A stretch of DNA of 63,868 nucleotides, the filler included, from Blastocystis sp. subtype 4 (taxonomy: Eukaryota): the NCBI RefSeq assembly GCF_000743755.1. It is 12 parts of 12 records of this genome, joined end to end, with 100 filler letters (N's around TTAATTAATTAA, not from the genome) between each part and the next. Parts side by side here need not be neighbours in the genome. Positions count along the whole stretch, not along the records: positions 15,492 to 24,008 come from NW_014569066.1; 11 more parts are not named here. The stretch is one strand, 5' to 3'. Positions 5,271-51,094 of this stretch are shown here, one piece after another. The position numbers and the translations under genes are program-made. The notes under the pieces are model-generated. The model ran no database searches, was not told where the DNA came from, and was given only the letters and a program-made list of their open reading frames with translations. Every line of letters begins with the position of its first letter. Position 1 is the first letter of the stretch.

Positions 5271-5955
5271 AGGTCTGAGACCTAGCATGCACATCGGAAG
5301 CTACGGCGCTGGGTGCCGTGCTTCCTTGTGGTGATGCAATAATTGTGTGCTAAATGGTAGAGAAAATGATCAAGATGTGGGATTAAGAAGAACAGAATGC
5401 TTAATAATGTATACTAATTTACTTTGATACTAATATGCATTGATTATTAACTGGATAGAAAAATGGAAGATGGCTGGAGTGACGGGTAGTTTTAGAAAGT
5501 TTTATATAATATGCCAAAATGGAAATCGACCCATTTTTACCTTTCCATTTTGAAAGAGTTTTATGAAATCCACCCGTCATCCATCACTCCGTCACCTTTT
5601 AAGCCCATGATCAAGCCAAAAGATGGACCTATTTAAAGGAAAGGTGACGGGTTGATTTTGTCGTTTTCCATTTCCCCATACCAATTCATTTTGATGCAGT
5701 CATCCATCACTCAATCATCTTCCGTATTTCTATCCAGTTTTATGAACAACAAATTAACCCATATTTTCGGTCACACATTTGGTGGTTGTTCTTCACCCTG
5801 TTTGCTGTACCATCTTTAGTGTTAGAGAGTTTGTTTTACTTTGTTCACACCATTTAACCATTTTCTTTACCATTTAGCATACAATTATTGCGTCAGCACA
5901 AGGAGGTGCAGTGTTTGCGCTGCGCCCTCTGCAGTGCACGCTTGGCCTCAGGTCT
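5271..5955. mobile_element. Non-autonomous repeat-A derivative with two inverted, diverged hairpin ends and GTGACGGG-type iterons
   Basis: 5271-5470 is an imperfect inverted copy of about 5720-5955; both arms end in the A-type double hairpin; no ORF and no obvious TSD. Confidence 0.8.
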
Positions 5956-5984
5956 CTATACATCTTACAATGAACATTTTCAAT

Positions 5985-6692
5985 CCAACTTATCAAAATC
6001 GATAATACAAAGGCGTCTTATCACGCTTTCTTCAAAACACATTTTTCATTCATTCTTTCATATTTCATTCATATTCACATTTCTATTCGAATCATACTAT
6101 CCAAACATCCTTATTCACACTTCTATCTTCTCATCTATTCTTATCTATCACCAACCTAATCATCTTAGGCTGGTTTTCATTCCCTTCTTTACTCATCCCT
6201 TTCAATGATCGATTATCACTTCATTCATTTCTTGATAGTAAACAATCAGATTCACACTACCTTGTAATAGACTCGATTGTTCTTAACTTTCCCGAGGGGA
6301 CATCTTCATCTTATCAACCTCTAATCTGTATTCTTATGGTTCTCTATCATCTAACAACTATGTTCTCTTCTCATGATTTTGGTACTCATCATCTACTCTC
6401 ATTCACACAATGTCTCTTTCAGAACGGTGTCTCATCCATATACTCGGTCACCATTAGGACGTAACTTATGAATGTGTAATGGTACCATTCTCAGGGAAGC
6501 TTCGTGTTGCCAGGGTGTATGGTTGATTTGATGAAGAAGTCACCCTACTATTCTCCAACAGGAATAGTGGTTGGATTCATGAGCTGTCAAGCAATCACTC
6601 GAGACTTGGGCCACTCGGGAACTAGTCCGAGGCCTCGCAGGTATGGACGTTAAGTGCCCTCTAGGGCATCTATGTAGCGTGTATAGTGTTTA
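5985..6692 (+). repeat. Repeat B copy 1
   Basis: Homologous to 37126-37861 and 42659-43270; ends GGACGTTAAGTGCCCTCTAGGGCATCTATGTAG...AGTGTTTA. Confidence 0.9.
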
Positions 6693-6734
6693 ACAATAAC
6701 CCTTCCTTCATTGTCAACAAATAAGTCCAGTTTA

Positions 6735-10312: not shown

Positions 10313-12149
10313 TTCATTCAAGTTTCTTCGAAGTGTTGTGATTGGTAATAGCTGTTTCGGATATGTTCTGGCATTCTCGATAGTGGGACTCAATTGGCTT
10401 GAATCAGTCAGGATTGGTTCTTCCAGTTTTGGGAGTGGTGGTCCATTATGGGAGGGCAGTGAGTTGAAGATTGTGAATTGTCCACAATTGAAGAGTTTGA
10501 GTATTGGAGGTGGTTCATTTGTTCGATACAATTGGTTTGAATTGTCTCATTTACCTCAACTGAAATCTGTAGAAATAGTAAGTGATCGTTACAATAATGG
10601 ACATGGTTTTCAATATGCTCCTAAAGCAGTATTCAGAGGTATGAATGATGGAAGAGATGGATTGTAGACTTGCCATCATTGGGAAGAATCAATTTAGAAT
10701 CTTATGTCTTCCAGAATGCAGAATATGTAGTATTTGAAAGTATGTGGTAATAGGAATTGAACATATCAGATCTTCCTAAGTTGACAGTGTTACGGTTAGG
10801 GAATTATTGCTTGGTTGGTTCGACTTCTACAAAGACAACTGATGTAATTCCCTATTACTATAAGAATACTCTTATCATGAGGAGTATGTATGTTAACAGT
10901 TCTAATCATCAGATCTACCATTGTTGACAATAAGTATTGGTGGTGCTGATGTATTTAGGAATATGGGTTTTGTAACATTAGAAAGTATCACATTTGGAAC
11001 TATCAAACAATAGATGTTCGATCACCTCTCCCTATTGGAGATTATAGTTCTAATCAATTCCAATACACTCACACTCTTGAAGTGAATAGTTGATGATTGG
11101 ATTGTTGATTGAGATGTAGATGCATCTAGTCTTGCTCAGTTGATATCATCCAGTAGTGTTTATGTGAAAGCAACAGGTAAAGTGATTGATCTCAGTTCAA
11201 TTCCATTATCAGTTGAGGATCTGAGGTTTGAGGATTATTCTCAAGTGGATTCAAGTGTTCTATCATTCAATCTGTCTCCATTCTCTCATCTCAAATCCGT
11301 CACTATTGGAGATGACTCTTTTGGTTCACCAATTGAGTTCATAGCCAATGAACTGAATGAATTGATTTCAATTGATATTGGAATGAACTCATTCACAAGG
11401 AGCAGAATGTCTTGTGCTGAAAGATGGAATCGAGAGTTTCATGTGAAGAACTGTGGATGTCTGAGAGAATTGATTATTGGACGATATTCATTCTCTGATT
11501 ATTGTGTATTCGATCTATCCAATCTTCCTCAACTCAGAACCATCTCCATTGGAACTGTTGATCGATCCAATAACTTCTATTATGCTTATGATGTTGATTT
11601 GATTGGTGAGAATGAATGTGAGAAATGATTGAAAGACTTGCCTTCACTTGAATCCATATCTATTGGAAGATATTCATTTGGTGGTTGTCATTCAGTTCGA
11701 TTTGAGAGTAATGATTGAATGAATGAGTAATAATCAGATCTGACATGTTTTCAATCCATGTATCTGTTTGAAGGAGCATTTTATGGAGATTGGAGAGATG
11801 ATCGTAAATCGAATAGCACAGCTCCTTTCAATTATCGAAACATTCTAACAATGAAGAGTGATGAATAGAAGCAAGAATGATGATTAGATCTGAGTCTTCT
11901 TGTGTCAATGCGAATCCCTTCCATTTGTTTCAGGTATATTGGATCTGTTGTTTTGGAGAGTATGACAAATGAATTGAGTTGAGAGTAGATATTCCAGTTC
12001 TTTCTTCAGGTATTATCACTAGCAGTGGTAATTATCAATTTGAGAGTGTTTATGAATTGAATGCAACGAGTCTGATTAACACTTGAAGATAAGATGTAGA
12101 TGCTGTTGCTCTTGAATCGTTTATTCGAAGCCGAAGTTCCTATGTGTAG
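10313..12149 (+). CDS. BspA-like LRR family protein, 5' partial, many ~30-nt introns
   Basis: LRR units such as CPQLKSLSIGGGSF, LPQLRTISIG; TAG followed by TGTTTGTT. Confidence 0.8.
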
Positions 12150-15491: not shown

Positions 15492-15615
15492 AGGAGTTCG
15501 TATGAGTGATTTGCGTTCGGTTCAGTTTGATGTGCGTGATCGTCATGGTGAAGTAGTATCAATCGCTTCAGACATCTACATCAACATCCGATTGAATGTG
15601 AACGGAAAGGTTTAA
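15492..15615 (+). CDS. C-terminus of Polinton/PLV-type minor capsid (penton)-like protein
   Basis: GVRMSDLRSVQFDVRDRHGEVVSIASDIYINIRLNVNGKV*; homologous to 29965-30085, 46330-46677 and 49590-49942. Confidence 0.6.
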
Positions 15616-15648
15616 TTTAATCTACGATTAAATAGCTGCTATGCAGCT
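15615..15648 (+). terminator. Double hairpin directly after the penton-like stop codon
   Basis: ATTTAATC-TAC-GATTAAAT then AGCTGC-TAT-GCAGCT; a terminator role is inferred only. Confidence 0.4.
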
Positions 15649-15689
15649 TAATGGGAAGGTTTAAGCTGTTGATTATTCACTTTGTGTGA

Positions 15690-16514
15690 GGAGTAGTTTT
15701 GGAGTAGGTTCAAAAATACAACCTACTCCACATTTCATTCAAAAAGGCTCATTAAATGGCTTATTTATAGGGATTAAATCATTTTGGAGTAGGAGGAGTA
15801 GGAAGAGTAGGTTGAAAATTCAATTTGACAAAATGTTTTGGTAGAATTCTTCTTAAGAAATAGAAAACCAACCTACTCCAACATCAAATAATCCTCATAA
15901 TCAAGCTAATTTATGGGCTATTCTAAAGGAATTTGGAGTAGGTTTGATATTTGAGACTACTCTTGAAACCTACTCCAAGTTTCTCCAACCAATATGTAAT
16001 CGATTATACTAATCCCTAATAACAAGGATATGTTGAATAGTTGCTCCGCAGTTGCTCTGCAACCATTGATCTTTGATCAATTCGTTTAATGTGTTAAACT
16101 CCAAATTCTCCACTTCACTTCATTTCTCAAAAGTCTTTAAAGATCGACACCCATGCCCATTTATCAACACCCTTAAAACATCCTGCTAAATCTATTTGTT
16201 ACCCCATAATAAGTACCGATTATATTCTTGCATATATAACTGAATACAATCATGGTACTATTGAGTCATTACTTAACAACTATCTCCCGTATTTCTATTC
16301 AGTTATATGAACACCAAAATTAGACCATATTTTGGTCACAGTTTTAGCGTTTGTTCGTCACCCTGTTTACGGCACCATCATTTGTGTCAGAAAGTTTGTT
16401 TTACTTTGTTCATACCATTTAACTGATTACTTAACCATTTTGCACACATTTATTGCGTCAGCTCAAGGAGGTGCGGCGCCGCGCCCTCCGCAGAGCATGC
16501 ACGGCCTCAGGCCT
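15690..16514 (+). mobile_element. Repeat A copy (GGAGTAGG iteron array + terminal GC hairpin)
   Basis: Many GGAGTAGG/CCTACTCC words; ends GCGTCAGCTCAAGGAGG...GGCCTCAGGCCT. Confidence 0.9.
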
Positions 16515-16657
16515 CAACTCATTTTAATGTAACATTCGTCAATTACTACTTGAATAAAAGTGTCTGGGTTAAGTAGCTGTATGATTCTTATTGTTAATGT
16601 GGCAATCAATTACTCTCACAAAACAGAAGAATAACTCAGGATACTACTTCAACACTC

Positions 16658-19600
16658 TTACTCTTGAGGATCATACTTGTTCATCAATACGTTCGCTTTC
16701 TTTATGAATAACTCGTCTCGTTCAACAAGATTTCCATATTCTAGTTCGCTGTTCTTACCACCAAATCCGCGTACTAAATTGTATTTACCTTTTCCTGTGT
16801 GTGTCATGTTTGCCATTTTGCGAGCTTCTTCTTTGGGATCTGCTTTCTTGAACAGTACTCTGCCTTTTGCCTTGCCACCTTCCCACATATCATTTGCGAA
16901 GTCTTTAACCTTTTCAACCGTTGTCTGTTTCTGTATCGTATCTTTGTGGGCTTCAATATCCATTTCCAATGCTTTTATACAGTTCTTCAATGCAATAGTA
17001 CATTTGTTCACTTCTTCCCATGGAGTCATGTTGTTTTCTGGATTCACTTTTTGATCTCTTATATCCTTTCCACCAAAATGGGATGCATATTCAAGTTGTT
17101 GAAGATCTCTGACCAGTTTTCTTGTATCATCCACGTATTCTCTCACAATGAAGTAGGCTTGAAGTGTTTTGGATACATTATCTCATGATTAGTCACTCAT
17201 GATTCCATTACCATATGAAGGAGTGTCACTCTTCCAGAAAGGTCCTCCTCCGTTCTTGGGTACTCTCAATGAAACCGAATCAAGAGCTGGAACATCTACT
17301 TTTCATATTGCCACCATATTACTACTTTTAATCCAAACAGTTCTTGGATTCTCAAAAGAACCAGACTCACTGACGGACTGAATCACTTTGAATTCTGGAA
17401 GACCTACATGTTTTAATAACCTAAATGCTACAATTCAGTAGAAGAGAACATGAATAATCCTGAGCACCATACAAGGCTTTCTCCCCCAAGTAAAGCGTAC
17501 GCAGACTGTCCAAACCTAGTTGACACTAATACTTCTTCTCCTACTGTCCAAAACCGTTTCAGTTGAATGGTAGAAGGATTCACCTCCAAGATCGATCGTC
17601 TTCAGCGATGGCAAATCTATGATCAACAGTGGATTAAATATGAACTCCTCAATATGAAGGAAGCATGATAAAAGTTGCATGATTTCTTGTGTCTGTCACC
17701 AATTGTCAGATGTTGAAGGTTATCAAGATCTTCCAGAATGAACTCTCCGTAATCACTGAAACTGAAACGACCAATTGAAATCGTATCCAACGACTTGCAT
17801 TCGGTGATGGAGAATGATTTTCCTTCATCGCCTCCTCCATTTGGAGATTCGGTAAATGAGTTATCTCCTATCTCTACAGTCTCTAATAAAGGAAGATTAG
17901 ACAATTCAAAAGATTTGACTCTCAAACAACAACCGTCTCTAATAATAACGTGTTTCAACTGGAGGTATATATTGTTCCACTTAAATGACATCAATTCAGT
18001 GCAGCTATTGTCTTCAACGTAAAGAATGGTCACCTTCTCAGTGACCTTCTTTTTCCCATCGTAAGTAACCTTTAATCCATTCTTATCAATAACATCATTA
18101 TGCTTCTTCATCGATTCCTCGATTATCTTCTCGATCTCTTTTTCCAAGGTGTCAGTTAACAATGTTTCTTTACCATCCACTAGATGAGTCGCACTTTTGC
18201 ACTTCTCTTCAAAACCCTTCATTGCTTCATATTTGATTTTGTTCAATTTGACTGCAAACTCCTCACTATCCATGCTATCATCTGAAATGATGTTATCTGC
18301 TTCCTTCTTGAAACTCTACACAACACTACTCAAATAACACAATACATNTCCTTCAATGTCAATGGTCTTCTGCAGGTGCTCTCTGTATCGAGTTTGCAGT
18401 TTATCACTGCCCTTCTTCTTCTCTTCAAACAACTTCCATGCAATATCATTGGCCTTCTTATGGATTGCTTCCAAGTCAGTATTGCCATACACCATATCTG
18501 GGCGAATTCTCTTATTCATTTCTCGTTTATACATCTACTACTTAATTGAATATCATTCACCAACCTCACAACATTCATCAACAAGCTGACTCAGCTTTGC
18601 CATATACAGATTGTCCATGATGCTATTCGTATCTGGGAAATGCTTTTGTTCCATAAACAAATGAGCTTGTTGAACTGCAAATCTACTCTTAATATCGTTT
18701 CATTCACTCACTCAACAAATGTTTTGACAGTGATTGTTTCACCTCCAATCTTTCTTGGTTCAATTCCTTTTCTCACTCCATCACCTTGAATCACTCGATC
18801 AATGTAGTAACTCAACATTTGCATAAACTGAGGTTTGATTTCAGATATGGATCCTTCATAATCCAAATTCATAACATCTTCTCCAGGAGAAGGAAAACAG
18901 AACATATCGAATTCATTAAAGCATTCCTCAATCTCTTTCACTTTGAATGCATCTTATTCAGTCTATTTATACCCAATTGAATTCCTTGCTCAATACTAGT
19001 TCTCTTACCGTAGTTTTCAAAATCACGAAGGAGAAAGTCCAGATGCTGAAATGGTTTACCATCCTTCTTAGATACTTCCTTACTAAACTTGGAAAGAACA
19101 GAGAATTTCTTCAATTGATCTGTATTCATATTGCCCTTCTGATTGAAGATTGCATATGAAGATATAAGAGAACTCAACCCGAAAATACTGCAATTGAACT
19201 CATTCTTTGTATCTAAATCCCATAATCCTTGAGTGTCCATCAACAGAATGCAGATCCTCTCTCCATTCTTTCGAGTGATAACAAAAGGCTTATTCCAAAA
19301 CAAGATTCCTCGAGTATTCCTTTCTGTTCCAGGGCTGATTGATTTGATGTTTGACTTCTTCGTTTCGACATTCTCCATTGTGTCAAAGTCTTTAATCTTA
19401 TTGCCTTCTGCTAACATCCATCGTGGAATACCATTGTCAGTTAATGTCATATCCACATGACCTTTCTCTATGGTTTACGAACCGTATTGATGTCTCACTT
19501 CTGAGTTGTTCTAAATAGAGATTCAAGAAGTACAGAAAGAAGGATTTCCCACTTCGAGAAGGACCCATAATACAAAGAACTCCCACAGGAAGGTCTTCAT

Positions 19601-19745
19601 CTACCTGTGCTTCAACTCCACATCATTCCACTACCTCTGAGAATAACCCATTCAAAGACTTGTCTTTCACTTTATACGACTCCCCCTTTTCTTCAATGAA
19701 CTAAAACTCATAGAAACAAGTCATCCTGACCTGTAAATCAGACAT
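16658..19745 (-). CDS. Atlastin/GBP-like GTPase - helical - LRR - coiled-coil fusion protein 1, multi-exon
   Basis: ATG 19745; GPSRSGKS (P-loop), TRGILFW, LLMDTQG, FLLRDF; LRR exons (LPLLETVEIGDNSF). Confidence 0.8.
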
Positions 19746-19844
19746 GAGGCAAATTAATTATGACCATTCACTGGTTCTTAATAATTTGTTAATACTTCCG
19801 CGGATATATCACTCATTCAGAATCATCCAATCATCAGTGTCAAC

Positions 19845-19870
19845 AGTAGTAGTAGATTGACACATGTTAC
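19845..19870 (+). mobile_element. Repeat C terminus (Polinton-like AGTAGTAG end) at an insertion junction
   Basis: AGTAGTAGTAGATTGACACATGTTAC matches AGTAGTAGTGTTTTGACGCATGTTAC at 43938. Confidence 0.65.
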
Positions 19871-19871
19871 A

Positions 19872-20640
19872 AGGCCTGAGGCCAAGTATGCACCTCCTTG
19901 AGCTGACGCAACAAATGTGTGCAAAATGGTTAAGTAAACAGTCAAATGGTATGAATAAAGTAAAACAAACTTTCTAATACTAATGATGGTGCAGTAAACA
20001 TCGTGACGAACAAACGCTAAAACTGTGACCAAAAATTTGGTCTAATTTTGCTGTTCATATAACTGGATAGAAACACGGGAGATGGTTGTTAAGTAATGTG
20101 TCAATAATACCGTGATTGTATTCAGTTATATACGCACGAATTTATTTGGAGTTTATTATGGGGTAACAAATTGATTTAGCAGGATTGTTTTAAGGATGTT
20201 GATGTTTAAAGACTTTTGAGAAATGAAGTAAATTGGAGAATTCGGATTATTCAACCAATGGATGATACCATTGTTATTAGGGATTAGTATAATCGATTAC
20301 ATATTGATTAGTTCATTATGAGATTAACAATAATGGAGTAGGTTTCAAGAGTAGTCTCAAATTTCAAACCTACTCCAAATTCCTTTAGAATAGCCCATAA
20401 ATGAGCTTGATTATGAGGATTATTTGTTGTTGGAGTAGGTGGAGTAGGTTGGTTATTCTATTTCTTAAGAATTCTATCAAAACTTTTTGTCTAATTGAAA
20501 TTTCAACCTACTCTTCCTACTCCTCCTACTCCAAAATGAATGAATCCTATAATCAAGCCATTTAATGAGCCTTTTTGAAGGTAATTTGGAGTAGTATTTT
20601 TGAACCTACTCCAAAACTACTCCAAAACTACTCCAACAAA
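19872..20640 (-). mobile_element. Repeat A copy, directly downstream of the primase-helicase gene
   Basis: Inverted homolog of 15690-16514; hairpin partly deleted. Confidence 0.9.
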
Positions 20641-20694
20641 TCATGATTATATAAAGCATAGCTTCCAAAGTAAAATAGAATCACATATTCATTA

Positions 20695-23600
20695 TCAAAC
20701 TTCACAATCACATACATGCAACAAGTTATAGACCACAAGATTATTACATTTTGTCGGACATTTTCTTATATACTGTGGATACTTCGATAGTTCTAACATG
20801 AATGATTTTGCACTTAGTTTATATCCATTATGATAGCTGCAACAGTAACTGTTAAACGCTTGTCCCAGACTTTTTGCAGGAATCATATATCCCTCAGTAA
20901 TGTATCTGATTGCTCTTCTTTGCTTATATTTTGACGTACAATACACATCAATCTCCGTGTCATCTTCAGATAATTGTTGAAGCCATTCTTCAACTGGATC
21001 AACAGATGCATCAATAATGTTCTGCATATATTCAGTGTCTTGGATTTCCAAGATATCTTCATCTGTGTATCTGACTTTGTTAAAGTAATTGTACAAACCA
21101 TGGCTGCTTCTTCCAAACATCGATTGTCTTAGCAAAGAAAGGCTGAGTGATGTATTGATCAGGCATGAAGTTTAAAGCACTAAATGCATTAATTCGAGCA
21201 TTACCATTAGCAACATCAAATGAAAATCCATTTGCATTGTTTGTTGTAGCAATGATTCGACTACGCATTGTGTATGTATAAGCTTGAATGTTCTTTCTGT
21301 TAGCAACCCTGTGTTTAGTACCATCAATGTAACTCTTCATCACATCAACGATATCTTTGCCAAATTCGGAAGCACGAGCTTCATTGATGTTCACAAGCAA
21401 TGTATTCTCAAATGGAACTCGATGAGCTCCAAGCAAATCATCCCTATTATTACATTCAACCACATATTCATCACCAATTATCTGACTGATCATTTTGATC
21501 AACAATCCTTTGCCTTGTCTGCATCTACTGTAGAATAGAATGCCAACAGGCAACAAATTAGCAGGATCTTGAATCATTTGAGCTACAAACTTCTTCACAT
21601 ATTCACAATATAATATATCACCAGAAATGTTGAGCATTGCCAAGATATAGATTCTCATGAATATAGGATGAAAGTTGATGTACATCTTCATCTGATCTGT
21701 TAACGCAGGAATCATGTCCATGAAATCATTGATCATAGGTACATATTCAGATAGATCAGGAACAGGATCAGTTGAACGAATATCTGGATTGTATCCTTTG
21801 AATGTGTTAAGCACTTTCTCACCAGTTGAAGGATCTCGTATCACTTCAACTGAACCACCACCAACTTTGTTGCATGGAATGAAATCTGCTCTGTTAGCAA
21901 CTCTTCTGATATTGAAATATGCATTGATAGCATCAATAGTTGGTTCTTTTGGTCCCTTGATGTCTTTGTCTTCGAAATATGATCTTGTCCCATAGATCTT
22001 ACCGATATTCTTCCATGTACCAACAATATCACTGTTTCGTTCAATATGTCCATTCACATAGCATGAATTGACAGGCGTTTGTAAGAACACAATTCGCTGT
22101 GATAGATAGCTCTTAATAATACTGATTGTCTTATTTCTATCTTTCCTATACTCATCTTCACTATCATAAGCACCAACACCTGGCTTCTTCATGTATCTCT
22201 TACAGATCTTCATTAATACCCAATCCTGAACAATCGGAAGATCTGCATCTCCACGCATGACCTCAGTATCATCATCAATTTCGTCATCACTGAAATCACA
22301 AATCGCATTCAAATCATATCTTCCATATTTCTCAGAACAGAAATCATCATAGAATGAAGGATTTGTATCTTTCACAATCTTCATCACAGTACCCATTGTA
22401 TAGATTTGATCTCGATCTGTCTTATATCCATTGTAGTATGTTTGTCTGAATGAATCAATATCATTGTTCTTAGGACGTCCAATGATTTGATTCCATTTCT
22501 CACAAACAATCTCATAACAGCCCATCCTTCATCATAATCATCTGTATCTTCAAAGTTTCTTGCAACTGCAGTGATTATAGGCAATTTGATTGTAGTATAG
22601 ATTCCTTCTGTAATAACACTGTAGTATAGATTCCTTCTGTAATAACACTATCAGGAATATGATCAAGCAGATCACGAACTTCTTTAACTGTGAACTTTTG
22701 ATGCTCTTCATTGTTTGATATTTCATCATGCTCTGTATTGTTTTTAACATCGTTAACACAGCTGTAAGCTGTGTTTAAAGATGGTTGTACTTGTTTGATA
22801 TTATCATTTGATGATGGAGGTTCAGGAAGTGTAAATCCTTCAGGAAGTTTAAAGGGTAAAATCTTGTTCTTATCAAAATCACTAAACACTGGTTGATCAG
22901 AATAATCAACATATTCATCTCTCAAAATGCAATCTGTGTATTTTGAATAATCAGCATCACCAAATTCTTTATCACCCAATTCAACGATATCAAATGATGA
23001 ACTAGTATAACTATCTTCTTCCATATCATAACATAGATACATATGACTTTCAGGCTTACAACTTCCATCTATCCAAAACACTCGTTTAGCGCCAAACATA
23101 CATTTATCAACAATTCTTTCAACATTGCCATAGAAGATCTTCTTAACTTCAATATCATTGATGATGTAGTTATATGTTGCTTCACGATGTTCATCATCTG
23201 TAAGTGCTTCAAGAATAATATGTGCTCCATGCTTATAGAGTTGCTTTGCAACATTTTGAGTGCTACTCAAATCTCCACATTGATATGGTGGTCTGATATA
23301 CAGATTGCTGTTGGTAGAGAACATTTCACACAATCGCTTATTGAATTGTTTGAATTGTTCTATTGGAACATCTTCAGATCCATTAGAATAATCCAGATCA
23401 ATACAAATCTTTCTTTTGCCTGTAAGAACAATACCAACAGCTACTGTATTTGTATATTCAATATCACAGTAATCTGCATGCCATTTGATAGCATACTGGA
23501 TAGATAGATTGTTGAAGAATTCATTCTTATCGTTTGGAACGTAAAATCCCATAGGGACTAGTTGTTTGTTGGGAGTACCATACCATACACACGAACATAG

Positions 23601-23758
23601 AATTGATGTTTATCTATTACAGTTTTTGGTTCACTCTTATAATAACATCCATTATTCCCATTTAAAAAGGAATGTAGATAATTAATTAGAGGATTTGCAA
23701 TTTGTTTTTCTTTGCTATTAGTAGGATTAATCGTTGTTCTATCAATTGTATCGCTCAT
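20695..23758 (-). pseudogene. Viral-type AEP primase - SF3 (D5-like) helicase - C-terminal winged-helix fusion, about 1000 aa, intronless, at least four frameshifts
   Basis: KICIDLDY, KHGAHII, VDKCMF..WIDGSCKP (AEP); VLNTFKGY, SRCRQGKG (Walker A), VNINEA (Walker B), IIATTNN (motif C); IPAKSLGQAFNSYC..SAKSF. Confidence 0.85.
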
Positions 23759-23859
23759 TTACTTATAGTGGAATAATCTATTAATTGATTATTTCACTTA
23801 GAATTTGATGATTTAGTTTTGATTCACAAAGTGACTGCAAATCTATGATTTGCTGGGTA

Positions 23860-24008
23860 GTTAGTGTAGTAGTTAGTATAGTAGGTTACAAAGAAGTAGG
23901 CTACTACACTTAATCCCTCATAAACAAGCTTGATTATGGGGGTATTCTTTAATTTATGAGGGTTTAACTGACTTGTTTATGAAGGTGTAGTAGGTGTAGT
24001 AGCCTGTT
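23860..24008. promoter_or_regulatory. Second iteron array (GTAGTAG type) upstream of the primase gene, cut by contig end
   Basis: GTAGTAGG/CTACTAC words around the scaffold CCTCATAAACAAGCTTGATTATGGG shared with repeat A. Confidence 0.6.
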
Positions 24009-34147: not shown

Positions 34148-34315
34148 AAAATGTCTGCCTTTTCGAGCTTGTTTATGGGCCTTTTTGTCTGCATTTTCGT
34201 GGCGTTTTTGTCTGGTAGGGTTAAGCGTGTATAGCTACCCAGGGTTAGAGGCCCATGTTTGCGACGGTTTGTCTGGATAATAAAAATACGTAACATACGT
34301 CAATTATCTACTGCT
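34148..34315 (-). mobile_element. Repeat C (Polinton-like terminal repeat), cut by contig start
   Basis: Reverse complement of 43938-44022; outer end AGCAGTAGATAATTGACGTATGTTAC. Confidence 0.7.
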
Positions 34316-35659: not shown

Positions 35660-36044
35660 TAGTAGTGTTGTTTATTTCCTGAGGGACTTCATGATCTTAT
35701 CAGGCTCTGTTCTGGATTCCTTGAGTTTGCTATCATGTAAGAACTCTGTTCTCTTGTGATTGAAATGGTGTTCATCGACTATCTCAAATTAGACTATGTG
35801 GTACGGTATGGGAAGAATGTCTATTTGAGATAATGTCACCTGATGATGAGTGTTTCAAGGGTGGTAATGATACTACTCTTCTTTGGTTGGTATCTTGATT
35901 TCCTTTCAGGGAATCACCCTAATCTCTACAATCGCTGGAGATTAGTCTCAGGAAAGAGTCCGAGACCTGACGATATGGACGTAAAGTGCCCTCTAGGGCA
36001 TCTATGTAGTGTTTAAAGTGTTTAAAGTGTTTAAAGTGTTTAAA
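35660..36044 (+). repeat. Diverged repeat B copy with (GTGTTTAAA)4 tail
   Basis: GGACGTAAAGTGCCCTCTAGGGCATCTATGTAG; tail 36009-36044. Confidence 0.8.
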
Positions 36045-36117
36045 CTACTCCAGCAAATGTGATTATTGTATTAACAAGTGAATCAATTATATACCTAATC
36101 TATGATACTCAATCCAT

Positions 36118-36862
36118 TGTGATTGCGAAATTTGATAAGATATTTGTGATTCTATTTAACTATGATACTTGTGAATGCAAATCATAGATTACTAATGGAG
36201 TAGTGTTGGAGTAGGTTTGGAGTAGGTTCAAAAATACAACCTACTCCGGAATTCCTTCAAAATGGCTTATAAACTGGCTTGATTATAGGGATTAATTCAA
36301 TTTGGAGTAGGAGGAGTAGGAAGAGTAGGTTGAAGATTCAATTAGACAAAAAGTTTTGGTAGAATTCTTCTTAAGAAATAGAAAACCCAACCTACTCCAC
36401 CTACTCCAACCTACTCCAACATCATATAATCCTCATAATGAAGCTAATTTATGGGCTATTTGTAAGGAATTTGGAGTAGGTTTGAAATTTGAGACTACTC
36501 CTGAAACCTACTCCAAGCTACTCCAATCAAATTGTATCAATCATTACTGAATGCAATCACGGTATTATTGACACATTTACTTAACAACAACTGCTATGCA
36601 GCTATTTAATCTACGATTAAATCTCCCATATTTCTATTCAGCTATATGAACACCAAAATTATACCATATTTTTGTCACAGTTTTAGCGGTTGTTCGTCAC
36701 CCTGTGTTACTACACCATCTTTTAGTGTCAGAAAGTTTGTTTTACTTTGTTCATACTATTTGACTGATTACTTAACCATTTTGCACTCCTTCTTTAGCGT
36801 CAGCTCAAGGAGGTGCGGCGCTTGCGCCGCGCCCTCCGCAGAGCACGCACGGCCTCAGGCCT
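36118..36862 (+). mobile_element. Repeat A copy retaining the last codons of the primase-helicase (CDCEI*)
   Basis: TGTGATTGCGAAATTTGATAA matches the CDCEV* end at 20695; then iterons and the full hairpin. Confidence 0.9.
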
Positions 36863-37125
36863 CTTCACATACTCTATGCATCATATTCAACCGCCTTTCA
36901 TACCTAACTCTACATTCCATTCATATTCTGACAATACTGCAGGTTTCATCTCTCAGACACTCAGCTAAGCTTCAATTCTTATACTTCAATTCAAACCGCT
37001 TTCATCACTCATGCGAAATATACTATCCAATACTACAGATCTTACTCACAACTTGATCTCCACTAATACTTCGAACTTCATCCTTTCTATAATACCATTC
37101 AATTATACATCTTACTACTAATCAA

Positions 37126-37861
37126 ACCAACTTACCAAAATCGATAACTCAAATTGTACATGTCTTCTCACTTTCTTCAAAACACAGCTTTCTTTCATTC
37201 TTTCATATTTCATTCATATTCACATTTCCATTCTAATCATACTATCGATACGTCCTCACTCACACTTCTCTCTTTTCTCATCTGTTCTTATCTGTACTCT
37301 TCTATATTACCAACCTAATCATCTTAGGCTGGTTTTCAATTCTTCATTCCGTTCTTTTAGTCATCCCTTTCAATGATGGATTACCACTTCATTCACTTGT
37401 TGATAGTAGACAATCAGATTCACAGTACCTTATTCATAGACTTGATTGTTTTTAACTTTCCCGAGGAGACATCTTCATCTTATCAAGCTCTAATGTGTAT
37501 TCTTATTCTTCTCTATCATGTAAGAACTATGTTCTCTTGTGATGATTCTGGTATTCATCATCTACTCTCATTGAGACAATGTCTCTTTGAGAAGGGTGTC
37601 TCTTCGAGATACTCGGTCACCATTAGGACATAAGTTCTGAAGGTGAAATGGTACCATTCTCAGGGAAGCTTCGTGTTGCCAGGATGTATGGTTGATTTCA
37701 TGAAGAAAACACCCTACTATTCTCCAAGAGGAATAGTGGTTGGGTTCATGAGCTGTCAAGCAATCACTCGAGACTTGGACCACTTGGGAACGAGTCCGAG
37801 GCCTTAATGATATGGACGTTAAGTGCCCTCTAGGGCATCTAAGTAGTGTTTAAAGTGTTTA
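37126..37861 (+). repeat. Repeat B copy 3
   Basis: Homologous to 5985-6692. Confidence 0.9.
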
Positions 37862-39044: not shown

Positions 39045-39263
39045 NNNNNNNNNNNNNNNNNNNNNNNNNNNNNNNNNNNNNNNNNNNNTTAATTAATTAA
39101 NNNNNNNNNNNNNNNNNNNNNNNNNNNNNNNNNNNNNNNNNNNNAGGCAAATTAATTATGACCATTCACTGGTTCTTAATAATTTGTTAATACTTCCGCG
39201 GATATATCACTCATTCAGAATCATCCAATCATCAGTGTCAACACCATTATTTTCTTTTGCCTG

Positions 39264-42200
39264 ATGTCTGTTATTCAAGTAGAATCGATGGAGATAATGA
39301 ATAGTAGTATATCGAGAGGTCAAAGCAAGGAAAACTGATGGTAAGTGAAGATTGTCTCCGTCGGTTGTTGAGCGATGTAGTATTGTCATGATGAGTTGAT
39401 TAGAAGGATATAGCGAAATTGGATGTGGCAGTACTGGGTATTATGGGTCCATCTCGAAGTGGCAAATCACTATTTCTCAACTTTGTGAGACTGTATCTGG
39501 ACAACCTGGAGAGTATGTATTCAAGAGGGAAAGAATGTATAGAACAAGGAAGGAGTTATTCAAAACTGAGAATACCAGATGTACCAGAATGGATGACTTC
39601 TGAAGGCGACCAAATCAGCGGATTTGAGGTTAACGGAGGAACAATAGCGGTAACAAAGGGTATTCTCTTTTGGAATAAGCCATTTATCATTCGTCGCCCT
39701 AATGGAAAGAAGATGTGTTTGTTACTAATGGATACTCAGGGATTGTGGGACGACAATACTGATAACTATTTCAACTGCTGTATCTTTGGACTAAGTTGCG
39801 TGATATCATCCTATGTTATCTTCAATCAAAAGAGGAATATCAATTCAGAAGAGCTGAAGCGATTGGCCGGTCTTTCGATGTTGAGCAAGGAAATGGTATG
39901 TGATGGAAGGAAGAAGACGTTTCAGAAACTCGATATTCTGTTACGTGACTTTGAGAATCTGAGTCTCCGAAATGATACTGTAGCTACTTGTGAGATTAAG
40001 AGCAAGAAGCGATTAGATCAATTGCGAACCAAAGTTGCTGAAAGAGAGTCATTTGGACAAGTTGAGTCGTGTTTCGACAAGGTGGATGTCGTATGTTCGT
40101 TTGATCCAGGAGAAGATGTCCGAGATGTCGACTATAAAGGATTGATATCTCAGATCAGACCCAAATTCTTGCAATTGTTGAGCCAGTATATTGAACGTAT
40201 TGTGAGAGATATTGAGCCATTGAAGGTTGATGGAAGGGATTTGAAGTGTGAAGAATTTGTGAAGTGGAAGAGAGAATGGAGAATAAGATATAGGTTTGCG
40301 ACTGAAGAAGCGGATTTCTTTGGAAAGTGGAGTCATTGTCCAGATATGGATGACTCTCTGGATTCTGTTTATAAGAGTGAGATGGAGAAGTTGGTAGATG
40401 AAGCGTATACCGTTAGTATGTTCTTGATGAATGAGGAGTAGAAATACACCAATGACTTGTTCTTGATGGAAGGAGGAATATGTGCAGATTCTCTCTTCTT
40501 GGCCAATGGTAAGGTGCGAGATGAATCGATGCAAGTGGGATTGATTGGATGTGATAATGGGAAGTGTATTGTGGATGTAATGAAAGATGTCGATGTCTCC
40601 AACTTCAATCCATCGGTTCAGGTGTCATTGAGTAGTAGAGTGTCTAGTGCCAAAGAAATCGGACTGAAACATTTCCAAGAGAAGGCAAAAGGGAGTATGA
40701 ATCTGAGAAGAGAGTATGAGCGATTGTTGAAGAGTAAGATGGATGAAAAGGCAACAAATCTTCGATCAGATTGGAATCAATTTGAACAATCATGGACAAG
40801 AGTTTGGAGAGTGGGAGTGTATAGGATAAATGATCCTTAGTGGTATAGAAGAACAATGGAAGAAACAATTCAGATTCCAAATCAAGATTATGCTACATTT
40901 GAAAACAAAAACAAGAAGGCGAAAGAGCAGGCGCTAACAACAATGAAGAATGAATGCAGAGGATTGGAGTACATTTGCATCTACTATTTAGCTAAGGATA
41001 AGAAGATATGGAGAGGGCATGTAAATATAATCAATACAATGACAAAGGGGCTTGACAGACAATATGATCGATATAAAGGACTGTATGAGTCGTATGTGAA
41101 ACTCAATGGATTATCGATGGTTCTACAAGGAGATGATGAATGGAACGAGCGGAACAGATACATTACGAGTCTGAGAGTGGCTTCTGGAAGTGGAAATAAA
41201 CTATCTCAATTTGAACTTGTCAACTATGATCGGCTGAAGGAGATAATCATTGAGGACAACTGCTTTGAGAGAGTCATCAAATTCAAATTGGATCATTTGA
41301 CAAGACTGGAGAAGTTGGTTGTTGGAAAGAAATCATTCACAAGAGGAGAGTATGTGAATAAGATATACTATACCGACACGAGTTTCATCATCACGAATTG
41401 TCCATCATTGACACTCATTGATATTGGTGAATGTAGTTTTGCAGAGTTTGGTGGAGAATGGAAGTTGAGTGGATTAGAGAAACTGAAGAAGTTGAGAATA
41501 ATAAGTGAAGACCAAGAGAGTTACAACTTCAACGGTTCTCCATTTGTGATAGAGGGTGGAGTCATGTGTGTAACTGATTAATGATAGGTCTACCTAATCT
41601 GGAAGTTATCGAATTGGGATATAATGCCTTTATTTGGGCCTCTGAAATACGTTTAGAAAGTAGGATGAAAGAGAAGTTGAATAGTAGACTTGAAGAATCT
41701 TGAAAGGATTGAGTTGAATACTTGGGCACTTCAAGGTACTACAAGAGAAGAGAGAGCATGTACTTTAGCGATGATAAGTATGCAATGATAAACGAATTGA
41801 GAGTAGATTTGCCAAACTTATATACGATACGAGCGAAAGGGACATGCAACTTGACGCAACCACGAGAAGTGACCTTACGAAGTAGGTTTCAATGAAGAAT
41901 AAGACGATAGACGTTCCATTAGTGAGAACTGTGGACTTGCATAATCCATTCCAAGAGTGCAAGAGCAAAGAGATTGGTGATAATATTGAAGAAAGATAAC
42001 GAATAGGCAATGTTGGCATTGGTTTACGGTCATACTTTGTAATGAAACAATTGAAAAGTGAAATGAATGAGCTGTTGAATCTGGATGATTATGGATACGA
42101 GAGTAGTTCTGCTAGGGAAAGTATTCAGAACTGCAAAGAAGAACAAAGAAACTATGATATCACTTGTCATTCAGGATATGATGTGATGCGCAAGTTGAAG

Positions 42201-42548: not shown

Positions 42549-42658
42549 TTGATTAACAAGAATGAATGAGTGGTGTTGAGTGATGGTAAAAATAGGTGGG
42601 TAAAAGTGTCATTGGAAGTGTTAGGGGTAAGAATGAGTGTGTTTAGGGTTTAGGGTGC

Positions 42659-43270
42659 TAAACACTTTAAACACTACATAGATGCCCTAGAGGGCAATTA
42701 ACGTCCATACCTGCGTAGGCCTCGAACTAGTTCCCCAGTGGTCCAAGTCTCGAGTGATTGCTTGACAGCTCATGAATCCAACCACTATTCCTCTTGGAGA
42801 ATAGTATAGTGATTTCATGATGAAATCAACCATACGCCCTGGTAACACGAAGCTTCCCTGAGAATGGTACCATTTCACCTTCAGAACTTACGTCCTAATG
42901 GTGACCGAGTATCTCGATGAGACACCCTTCTCAAGAGACATTGTCTCAATGAGAGTAGATGAATACCAAAATCAACACAAGAGAACATAGTTCTAACATG
43001 ATAGAAAAGAATAAGAATACACATTAGAGCTTGAGTAGATCAAGATGTCTCCTCGGGAAAGTTAAGAACAATCGAGTCTATCAACAAGGTACTGTGAATC
43101 TCATTGTCTTCTATCAACAAGTGAATGAAATGGTAATCCATCATTGAAATGGATGACTAAATAAACGGAATGAAAAAGTGAAAAAACCAACCTAAGATGA
43201 TTAGGTTGGTAATATAGCAGATTGTAGAGAAGAGTATAGATGAGGATAGATGAGGATAGATGAGAAGAGG
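42659..43270 (-). repeat. Repeat B copy 4, abutting (TTTAGGG)2
   Basis: Reverse complement of 37270-37861. Confidence 0.9.
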
Positions 43271-43394: not shown

Positions 43395-43937
43395 AGGCCT
43401 GAGGCCGTGCGTACTCTGCGGAGGGCGCGGCGCAAGCGCCGCACCTCCTTGAGCTGACGCAATAAATGTGTACAAAATGGTTAAGTAAACAGTCAAAATG
43501 GTGTGAACAAAGTAAACATACTTTCTGACACTAAAAAGATGATGCAGTAAACAGGGTGACGAACAAACGCAAAAAATGTGTGACCAATAATATGGATTAT
43601 CTTTGATGTTCATATAACTGAATAGAATAACGGATATAAGGGTTTAGTATAATCGAAACCATATTGATAGGGAGTAGCTTGGAGTAGGTTTCAGGAGTAG
43701 TCTCAAATATCAAACCTACTCCAAATTCCTTACAAATAGCCCATAAATTAGATTCATTATGAGGATTATTTGATGTTGGAGTAGGTGGAGTAGGTGGAGT
43801 AGGTTAGATTTTCTATTTCTTAACAAGAATTCTATCAAAAACTTTTGTCTAATTGAATTTTCAACCTACTCTTCCTACTCCTCCTACTCCAAAATGAATT
43901 AATCCCTATAAATAAGCCATTTTATGAGCCATTTATG
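43395..43937 (-). mobile_element. Repeat A copy, truncated by repeat C
   Basis: Full hairpin 43395-43460 plus iterons. Confidence 0.9.
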
Positions 43938-44022
43938 AGTAGTAGTGTTTTGACGCATGTTACGTATTTTTTTCATCCAGACAAACCGTCGCAAACATGG
44001 GCCTCCAACCCTGGGTAGCTAT
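43938..44022 (+). mobile_element. Repeat C (Polinton-like AGTAGTAGT terminus), cut by contig end
   Basis: AGTAGTAGTGTTTTGACGCATGTTACGTATT...CCAGACAAACCGTCGCAAACATGGGCC. Confidence 0.7.
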
Positions 44023-51021: not shown

Positions 51022-51094
51022 CTCCGAAGCGGGGAATCGAACCCCGGTCGTCCGCGTGACAGGCGGAAATACTTAACCACTATACTACTTCGGA
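51022..51094 (-). tRNA. tRNA-Asp (GTC)
   Basis: TCCGAAG acceptor stem, TAGTGG D-loop, CTGTCAC anticodon loop, GGTTCGATTCC T-loop. Confidence 0.95.

Follow-up and report, generated by a model that had tools for sequence, protein, structure and literature searches.

A primase-helicase pseudogene between palindromic repeat arrays, a candidate replication end module of a Polinton-like element in Blastocystis

The window analysed here is a stretch of 63,868 nucleotides of DNA from Blastocystis sp. subtype 4 (assembly GCF_000743755.1), in which parts of 12 contigs are joined end to end. Its fourth contig (15492-24008) holds a primase-helicase gene that the original prediction had assigned to a self-replicating Polinton-like virus (PLV) or a satellite of one. 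At this locus, host DNA gives way to an AGTAG-type terminus, which is followed by a repeat (repeat A) and then by the gene itself, set between two arrays of short opposed units (Table 1). The locus was compared with contigs from several runs (X1, X2 and others) and with seven metagenome loci, drawn from 409 candidate stretches, of which six are full-length and five cover both flanks.

The gene is spread over four frames on the minus strand. The AEP motifs (DLD, KHGAH and WIDGSCK) all lie within the frame 22575-23609, and the Walker A/B/C-like motifs (YSRCRQGKG, VNINE and IATTN) within the frame 21080-22528, which matches Pfam DUF5906 (E 7e-9), in line with the AEP and SF3 helicase motifs first proposed. 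Measured against intact relatives, the window copy carries four indels (+5 near 23588, +29 in the form of a tandem duplication, -4 near 22513 and -11 near 21096) and fewer than 20 substitutions, the last 270 nt excluded; near 20956 it switches to an alternative C-terminus. The primase-helicase copy at this locus is a pseudogene, inactivated there. A full frame of about 1000 residues is found in the intact relatives; the window copy, predicted as a single intronless frame, is broken and, because it is a pseudogene, the label 'self-replicating' could apply to those relatives only. Single contigs from runs X6 and X12 cross the duplication with 72 and 33 gap letters, respectively. None of the four indels was seen in the run contigs, which is neutral evidence, since collapsed contigs lose minority alleles. 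In runs X1 and X2, positions 20598-20986 are covered by a separate contig piece, and the depth of the gene (29-34, against 7-10 for the flank; a contig depth and not a copy number) hints at several copies.

Every array recovered consists of opposed 9-bp units around AT-rich spacers, built on one scaffold. The downstream array starts 55 bp beyond the stop codon and comprises 10-12 opposed units, with 10 CTACT[C/A]C units compared to a mean of 0.08 and a maximum of 2 in 500 shuffles, and a folding z of -10. The upstream array, cut by the end of the contig, has 4 units (shuffle mean 0.2, maximum 3; folding z -3.8), so that both of the iteron arrays anticipated by the original prediction exceed the shuffle means and maxima. 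Further copies of the downstream array lie at 15688-15995, 36195-36525 and 43670-43935 in the window and at L001:1-205. Arrays are present on both sides of the gene in all five loci with both flanks (5/5), L005 showing the first units only, and in L002-L004 the two arrays are inverted copies of about 250 bp. The CTACTAC type lies upstream and the CTACTCC type downstream in the window, and the opposite holds in L001. Furthermore, all 10 units of L006 read CTACTCCA where the L002 scaffold has CTACTACA, one position being altered in each; this concerted change fits selection for a binding protein or homogenisation. A third type of palindromic array, with GTGACGGG/CCGTCAC units, was found at 5470-5712 in the window, at L001:3790-4060 and at L003:5779-5822; it adjoins repeat A or a penton-like cassette and may be the origin of another replicase.

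Relatives of the gene form a large family. The best is 99% identical and belongs to a cluster of 368 members, and a search for longer proteins gave 20 matches of 916-1025 residues among 2324 candidates. The 90% cluster of the gene includes KAK8802167.1 of Blastocystis sp. BT1, which has the same C-terminal type as the window copy; three ENA proteins also carry this alternative C-terminus. A profile search yielded 548 matches at E<=0.001, 10 of them at <=1e-30, and those outside the family were mostly limited to the helicase domain. Among 79 full-length members, the commonest motif variants retain the AEP and helicase catalytic positions. Four of the six full-length copies in the metagenome loci are intact, L004 and L006 being frameshifted, and the 975 codons compared between L003 and L006 give a dN/dS of 0.29 (AEP 0.17, SF3 0.21). 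The intact relatives are under purifying selection.

A structure model was made for P0001, a natural intact member (multi-domain; pLDDT 59, pTM 0.35). By fold comparison, it resembles the NrS-1 helicase (Z 10.9, residues 645-1007), human PrimPol (Z 10.4), the AEP domain of the PrimPol of African swine fever virus (ASFV; Z 10.4) and the SaPI5 primase-helicase 7ola (Z 9.5), and its residues 916-1010 resemble the RFX winged helix, with a middling Z of 5.9 and agreement in secondary structure. Foldseek matched the model to ASFV C962R (E 5e-10) and to primase-helicases of nucleocytoplasmic large DNA viruses (NCLDVs), phages and virophages. ESM features scored 0.96 for AEP_C962R, a recognition under the threshold of the tool, and the ESM clusters were mostly Nucleocytoviricota. 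Sequence searches of the PDB returned 0 matches. Position, helical structure and Pfam matches on distant relatives suggest a PriCT-2 domain at about 355-470, which had no direct match. The model thus predicts a virus-type protein made of an AEP primase, an SF3 helicase and a C-terminal winged helix, which bears out the predicted virus-type primase-helicase and replaces the plain helical C-terminus of the original prediction. The C-terminus of nearly every protein in the family set P0001-P0020 is C-[ED]-[LFV], to which a few add a short tail, and past the PriCT-like domain there is a similar CEF-acidic motif.

The winged-helix tip has a history of its own. Between genes with 97-100% identity in the AEP domain, the last ~85 residues diverge sharply, with C-terminal identities of 51% (P0001/P0021), 29% (P0017/P0018), 24% (P0008/P0009) and 25% (P0005/P0019). 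In trees of 18 representatives chosen from the 79 full-length members, five pairs that are sisters or in the same clade by their N-terminal part are split across a C-terminal bipartition with 99/99 support. These comparisons indicate that the winged helix was exchanged between near-identical genes in five lineage pairs. L001-L004 and L006 combine the common C-terminus with the short array scaffold, and the window and the contigs of X1 and X2 combine the alternative one with the long CTACTCC array; linkage can by itself be enough to explain this pairing. A strict correspondence of each winged-helix type to one unit sequence was considered and, given L006, is not supported.

The host junction is defined by an empty-site allele at the start of contig 8, which past 39243 runs on in host DNA toward a paralogue of the flanking gene; base 19845 can be assigned to host or element. 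Both continuations at the branch are present in run X1, which shows few flank differences from the window and is possibly related to its source, and so not fully independent. In X2, the junction lies inside one contig (18349-20032), with a hole at 39244-39288, and both X1 and X2 show a loose end. Runs X5 and X7 had no contigs matching contig 8, which weighs neither way. A hemizygous insertion is the simplest reading, and filled and empty alleles could coexist because Blastocystis is diploid, isolates showing a diploid signal in the available text of PMC12129017. The Polinton-type terminal motif AGTAGTAGT stands at 19845, at one end only, and the Polinton-like end that had been predicted at the host junction thus proves to start with AGTAGT exactly where the empty allele branches; (AGT)2 is given as the commonest vertebrate Maverick end in the available part of PMC8097293.

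The AGTAGTAG end at 19845 fits the motif AGTAG-N-TTGAYRHATGTTAC, which occurs at four separate sites of the window and had 0 matches in 100 shuffles, the pattern being derived from those same four sites. End motifs of 22-26 nt lie at 19845, 16550, 34312 and 43938, and at L004:3012; two of these five ends enter repeat A and three enter repeat B. A search for a target-site duplication found the 6-nt flank matched by none of five other ends. Between the two outward-facing ends on contig 4 lies a host segment of 3.3 kb (16551-19844) with an LRR-type gene and a GTPase-like gene, which we take to encode a guanylate-binding protein. Many element ends in the window adjoin LRR-type gene families.

Table 1. 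Features of the element and its insertion site in the window (strand as + or -;. where neither applies).
Feature	Position	Strand	Remarks
Second, opposite-facing end on contig 4: penton-like C-terminal fragment, CTACTCC array, repeat A, AGTAG terminus	15492..16550	.	Penton-like label presumed
Element terminus (AGT)3-AGATTGACACATGTTAC	19845..19870	+	Exact branch against the empty allele; motif common to other ends
Repeat A, sub-terminal, begins AGGCCTGAGGCC, without GC hairpin	19873..20078	+	5 window copies and 3 copies in loci start at that motif
Downstream palindromic array, CTACTCC-type 9-bp units, AT-rich spacers; putative origin	20330..20640	.	Copies given in the text
Primase-helicase pseudogene, AEP-PriCT-SF3 helicase-winged helix (predicted)	20695..23758	-	4 indels
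Alternative C-terminal winged-helix segment (predicted)	20695..20956	-	51% identity to the common type; type of BT1 protein KAK8802167.1
Perfect 29-bp tandem duplication	22591..22649	.	1 of the 4 frame breaks
Upstream palindromic array, CTACTAC-type units	23845..24008	.	Ends at contig end; inverted copy of the downstream array in L002-L004
Empty-site allele, start of contig 8	39145..39243	+	Identical to 19747-19845, then host sequence

The boundary of repeat A is AGGCCTGAGGCC, or nearly so, in all eight copies. The copies at 36859 and 43398 have a GC hairpin, and those at 16511 and 5952 a shorter or variant one; the copy beside the gene, where such a hairpin had been predicted, folds no better than shuffles (z -0.9). 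Pieces of the element occur on 6 of the 12 contigs (2, 4, 6, 7, 8 and 9), rather than on seven as originally counted. In prokaryote genomes, the repeat A motif gave 27 chance matches. Repeat B (43938-44022, 34148-34312 and L004:3012-3185; terminus AGTAG...ATGTTAC) may mark the end of a partner element of the Polinton type, and the copy at 43938 adjoins and truncates a CTACTCC array, suggesting a nested insertion.

Repeat C, considered as part of the element, behaves rather like a separate repeat, and no open frame was recognised in it. It ends in tandem AGTGTTTAA units (36008-36050 and 42620-42670), a tract that closes once with ACTACT and once adjoins two TTTAGGG units. An AP-endonuclease open reading frame (ORF) of the non-LTR retroelement type (L004:7286-9340; Pfam E 4e-10) stops exactly at the boundary of repeat A, and its 5' part comes after repeat C on contig 7 (37887-38171). 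A hAT transposase fragment (L002:4429-5529; Pfam E 3e-8) sits 600 bp away from a repeat A end, on its outer side. The sole Rfam match, a tRNA gene at 51022-51094, is unrelated to the element.

A strand-specific hypermutated tract was also observed: at L004:4070-5973, compared with window positions 10313-12147, 211 of 255 plus-strand C read G in L004, other changes being rare and C after G partly spared (13/27). The region L004:3200-6600 contains 2% G. The tract destroys LRR-type host genes and lies between the B-type end and the endonuclease ORF; the primase-helicase copies are without C-to-G bias. As a guess, deamination followed by bypass of abasic sites may have produced it, and a literature search on strand-specific C-to-G hypermutation gave nothing relevant by title. 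The contig 2 copy of repeat C (5980-6710) carries 18 G-to-C changes of its own; the two others have 0 and 2. Window positions 36870-37300 (repeat C copy 36864-37267) contain 5% G and are 92% identical to L004:6591-7006, and because these two are alike the G bias is not confined to one assembly.

Neighbouring genes link the primase-helicase to a second family. L001 and L003 have 5.9 kb in common at 97.5% identity, with six intronless ORFs. One gene of this cassette is part of a 1124-residue protein with 256 members, including a BT1 relative on a 923-kb contig, so that BT1 has relatives of both proteins. We take the 1124-residue protein to be penton-like from two motif modules, a label that the tools used here did not confirm. 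The two genes stand together on the contigs of L001 and L003, the cassette lying 3' of the primase-helicase gene in L001 and 5' in L003. Repeat A is on the 3' side of the gene in L002, L006 and the window and on the 5' side in L004; the opposite orientations may reflect a genuine inversion or relocation, or else contigs mis-joined at the arrays. Because host DNA cuts the penton-like gene of L001 at residue 249, this copy is a remnant. Penton-like fragments in the window (15492, 29978, 46387 and 49588) match the 1124-residue family weakly (hhalign probability 9.5, E 0.003, for a window fragment). 

Comparison with known systems places the locus near several of them. Like group 2 Maverick-Polintons and PLVs (Polisuviricotina), it combines an AEP-SF3 fusion beside an element end with an (AGT)n terminus, integration in a protist, a presumed penton-like gene nearby and domain swapping below the level of the gene. 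It differs from them in that no major capsid protein (MCP), ATPase, integrase or tyrosine recombinase, second terminal inverted repeat or target-site duplication was found, in that the gene has opposed-unit arrays of its own on either side, and in that the swapped part is the C-terminal winged helix rather than helicase or primase. Group 2 Maverick-Polintons often have AEP-SF3 in place of pPolB according to the available text of 10.64898/2026.06.19.733378, the main text of which, as available, does not mention Blastocystis. AEP-SF3 end modules, repeat-bracketed replicases and domain swapping are described in the accessible parts of Barth 2024 and 10.64898/2026.10.13.758929; in the former, the replication origin of primase-helicase-type PLVs is hypothesised and left undefined. 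The mobile D5-like helicases with entomopoxvirus terminal inverted repeats, and their PLVs, likewise have a repeat-flanked D5-like gene at their ends, with inverted repeats proposed as origins, as our arrays are putative origins; in contrast to what the available text of Barth et al. 2024 describes, no adjacent tyrosine recombinase or GIY-YIG/T5orf172 nuclease was seen here. The Blastocystis MELD virus has the same host genus, carries PolB and an integrase, and has virion proteins too divergent to be recognised by sequence, with no primase-helicase described in the part of Starrett et al. 2021 available, whereas we find one here. ASFV C962R, poxvirus D5 and NrS-1 match in domain order and, by the model, in fold, but identity to them is 9-17%, the Walker A (YS-CRQGK) and Walker B (VNINE) are atypical, and the context is not that of a giant virus.

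The closest working model for gene and arrays is, by analogy, the replicon of the Staphylococcus aureus pathogenicity islands (SaPIs). SaPI5 PriRep would share with our protein the fusion of primase, SF3 helicase and winged helix, and SaPI origins consist of 6-12 opposed iterons directly downstream of rep, with an AT-rich centre, bound by the C-terminal winged helix (as described in the available text of PMC9371898). The Blastocystis locus differs in its eukaryotic host, arrays on both sides, 9-bp units with putative binding, and lack of a phage-type integrase or repressor. Actual membership in the SaPIs or phage-inducible chromosomal islands was rejected, no relative being present in prokaryote genomes, plasmids or phages.

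On these grounds, it seems reasonable to suggest that the locus is, with fair probability, the replication end module of a Polinton-like element of Blastocystis that works like a SaPI replicon and is dead at this locus. The module would run from the terminus through repeat A to the primase-helicase gene, between two arrays acting as origins. In intact copies, by analogy with SaPI PriRep, the winged helix may bind the 9-bp units, the AT-rich spacer would be melted by a pair of hexamers loaded on its two flanks, and priming (perhaps also extension) of DNA would fall to the AEP domain. A retroviral-type integrase, encoded elsewhere in the element or in trans, may act on the AGTAGT end. Finally, the homologous arrays could serve as exchange points at which the gene is moved or flipped and acquires a new winged helix along with the array downstream of it.

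Several observations weigh against this module. Neither the window nor the ORFs of L001-L004 (contigs of at most 13.8 kb, none with a complete element) revealed an MCP, A32 ATPase, integrase, recombinase or pPolB, as the original prediction had noted for its integrase, polymerase, packaging ATPase and major capsid genes, and neither a second end nor a target duplication was found in the window and loci; membership in the Polinton-like viruses is unproven for want of these parts. What stands of the proposed Polinton-like virus is integration in a protist genome, the Polinton-like end and the origin-like arrays, and not a complete virus. The 1124-residue penton-like protein had no significant match in Pfam, PHROG or PDB (model pLDDT 29), and the MCP column is empty for all 10 Blastocystis assemblies listed in the available part of Bellas 2023 Table S1. 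Only 2 of the 8 copies of repeat A have an AGTAG terminus. Depth in X1 is 7.6 inward and 7.5 on the empty path, without the halving expected of a simple heterozygote. The multi-domain P0001 model has a low pTM and a middling winged-helix score. L006 combines a common-type C-terminus with CTACTCC units, so that the unit core is not tied to the C-terminal type, and the swap of whole blocks is explicable by linkage alone.

A doubtful but substantial alternative is that the array-gene-array cassette of ~3.6 kb is an independently mobile, capsid-less replicon, a satellite or transpoviron-like, which invades Polinton-like ends and other repeats via its arrays or the GGCCTGAGGCC boundary of repeat A, and possibly inverts. 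Its own inverted arrays bracket the gene, which occurs in both orientations relative to the penton-like cassette (L001/L003) and to repeat A (L002, L006, window/L004); all eight A copies have one boundary and different flanks, in L004 within the endonuclease ORF; and autonomous mobility of repeat-bracketed AEP replicases is proposed in the available text of Barth et al. (10.64898/2026.10.13.758929). However, the cassette encodes no recombinase or nuclease, the multicopy repeats of ~250 bp can mis-join short-read metagenome contigs, which may make the orientations artefacts, and the sole demonstrated polymorphism begins at the AGTAG end, at neither array nor repeat A. With similarly low confidence, one may envisage that Blastocystis has its own eukaryotic analogue of the SaPI replicon, an invertible primase-helicase cassette without a capsid that has two iteron origins and hops among Polinton-like virus ends, its origin specificity changed by the joint swap of winged helix and array; if true, this would make a mechanism of replicase turnover in Polisuviricotina visible.

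An endogenized terminal fragment of a giant virus with a D5/C962R-like gene is improbable: the top Foldseek matches are primase-helicases of ASFV and other NCLDVs and the ESM clusters point the same way, but identity to the top fold matches is very low, the end is short and of Polinton type, no NCLDV core gene was recognised in flanks of up to 10 kb on these short contigs, and the egovirus study, in its available text, has no signal of gene flux with Blastocystis. Slightly less credible still is the idea that junction, frame breaks and flanks are largely an assembly product of collapsed repeats, as the short window contigs, the stop inside an array and the absence of the four indels from run contigs might suggest; that absence is uninformative, since minority alleles are dropped on collapse, and the X2 junction contig, the loose ends in X1 and X2, and the alternative C-terminus in BT1 and three ENA proteins argue against it. 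A bacterial or phage contaminant or a cellular gene, to which the likeness of the helicase domain to phage NrS-1-type proteins might point, is largely refuted and highly implausible: a search of 185,579 prokaryote genomes, plasmids or phages found no relative, 0 of 73 candidate prokaryote stretches encode one, and the gene adjoins host genes in unbroken sequence in the window, L001, L002 and L004. Motif scans of IMG/VR likewise found no relatives (0/9, 0/78, 0/2 and two further scans with 0); one scan gave 2/22, with matches of 9-14 residues only and the phage-like L008, and an end scan gave 21 motif matches, unrelated by blastn/tblastn save one 59-nt match.

The end module of a Polinton-like element thus remains our preferred account. 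No published description of the element was found in the literature searched, many journals and preprint supplements lying outside it. Modules of the AEP-SF3 kind are already known, and what is new is the combination of arrays on both sides with an exchangeable winged helix. The family gives short, countable candidate origins, two unit types and two winged-helix clades and, in a host that is culturable, diploid and provided with a long-read assembly, PLV origins and replicase mobility become testable. In addition, the finding suggests that an endogenous lineage of DNA viruses is present in the commonest eukaryote of the human gut, whose assemblies gave no match in an MCP-based screen.

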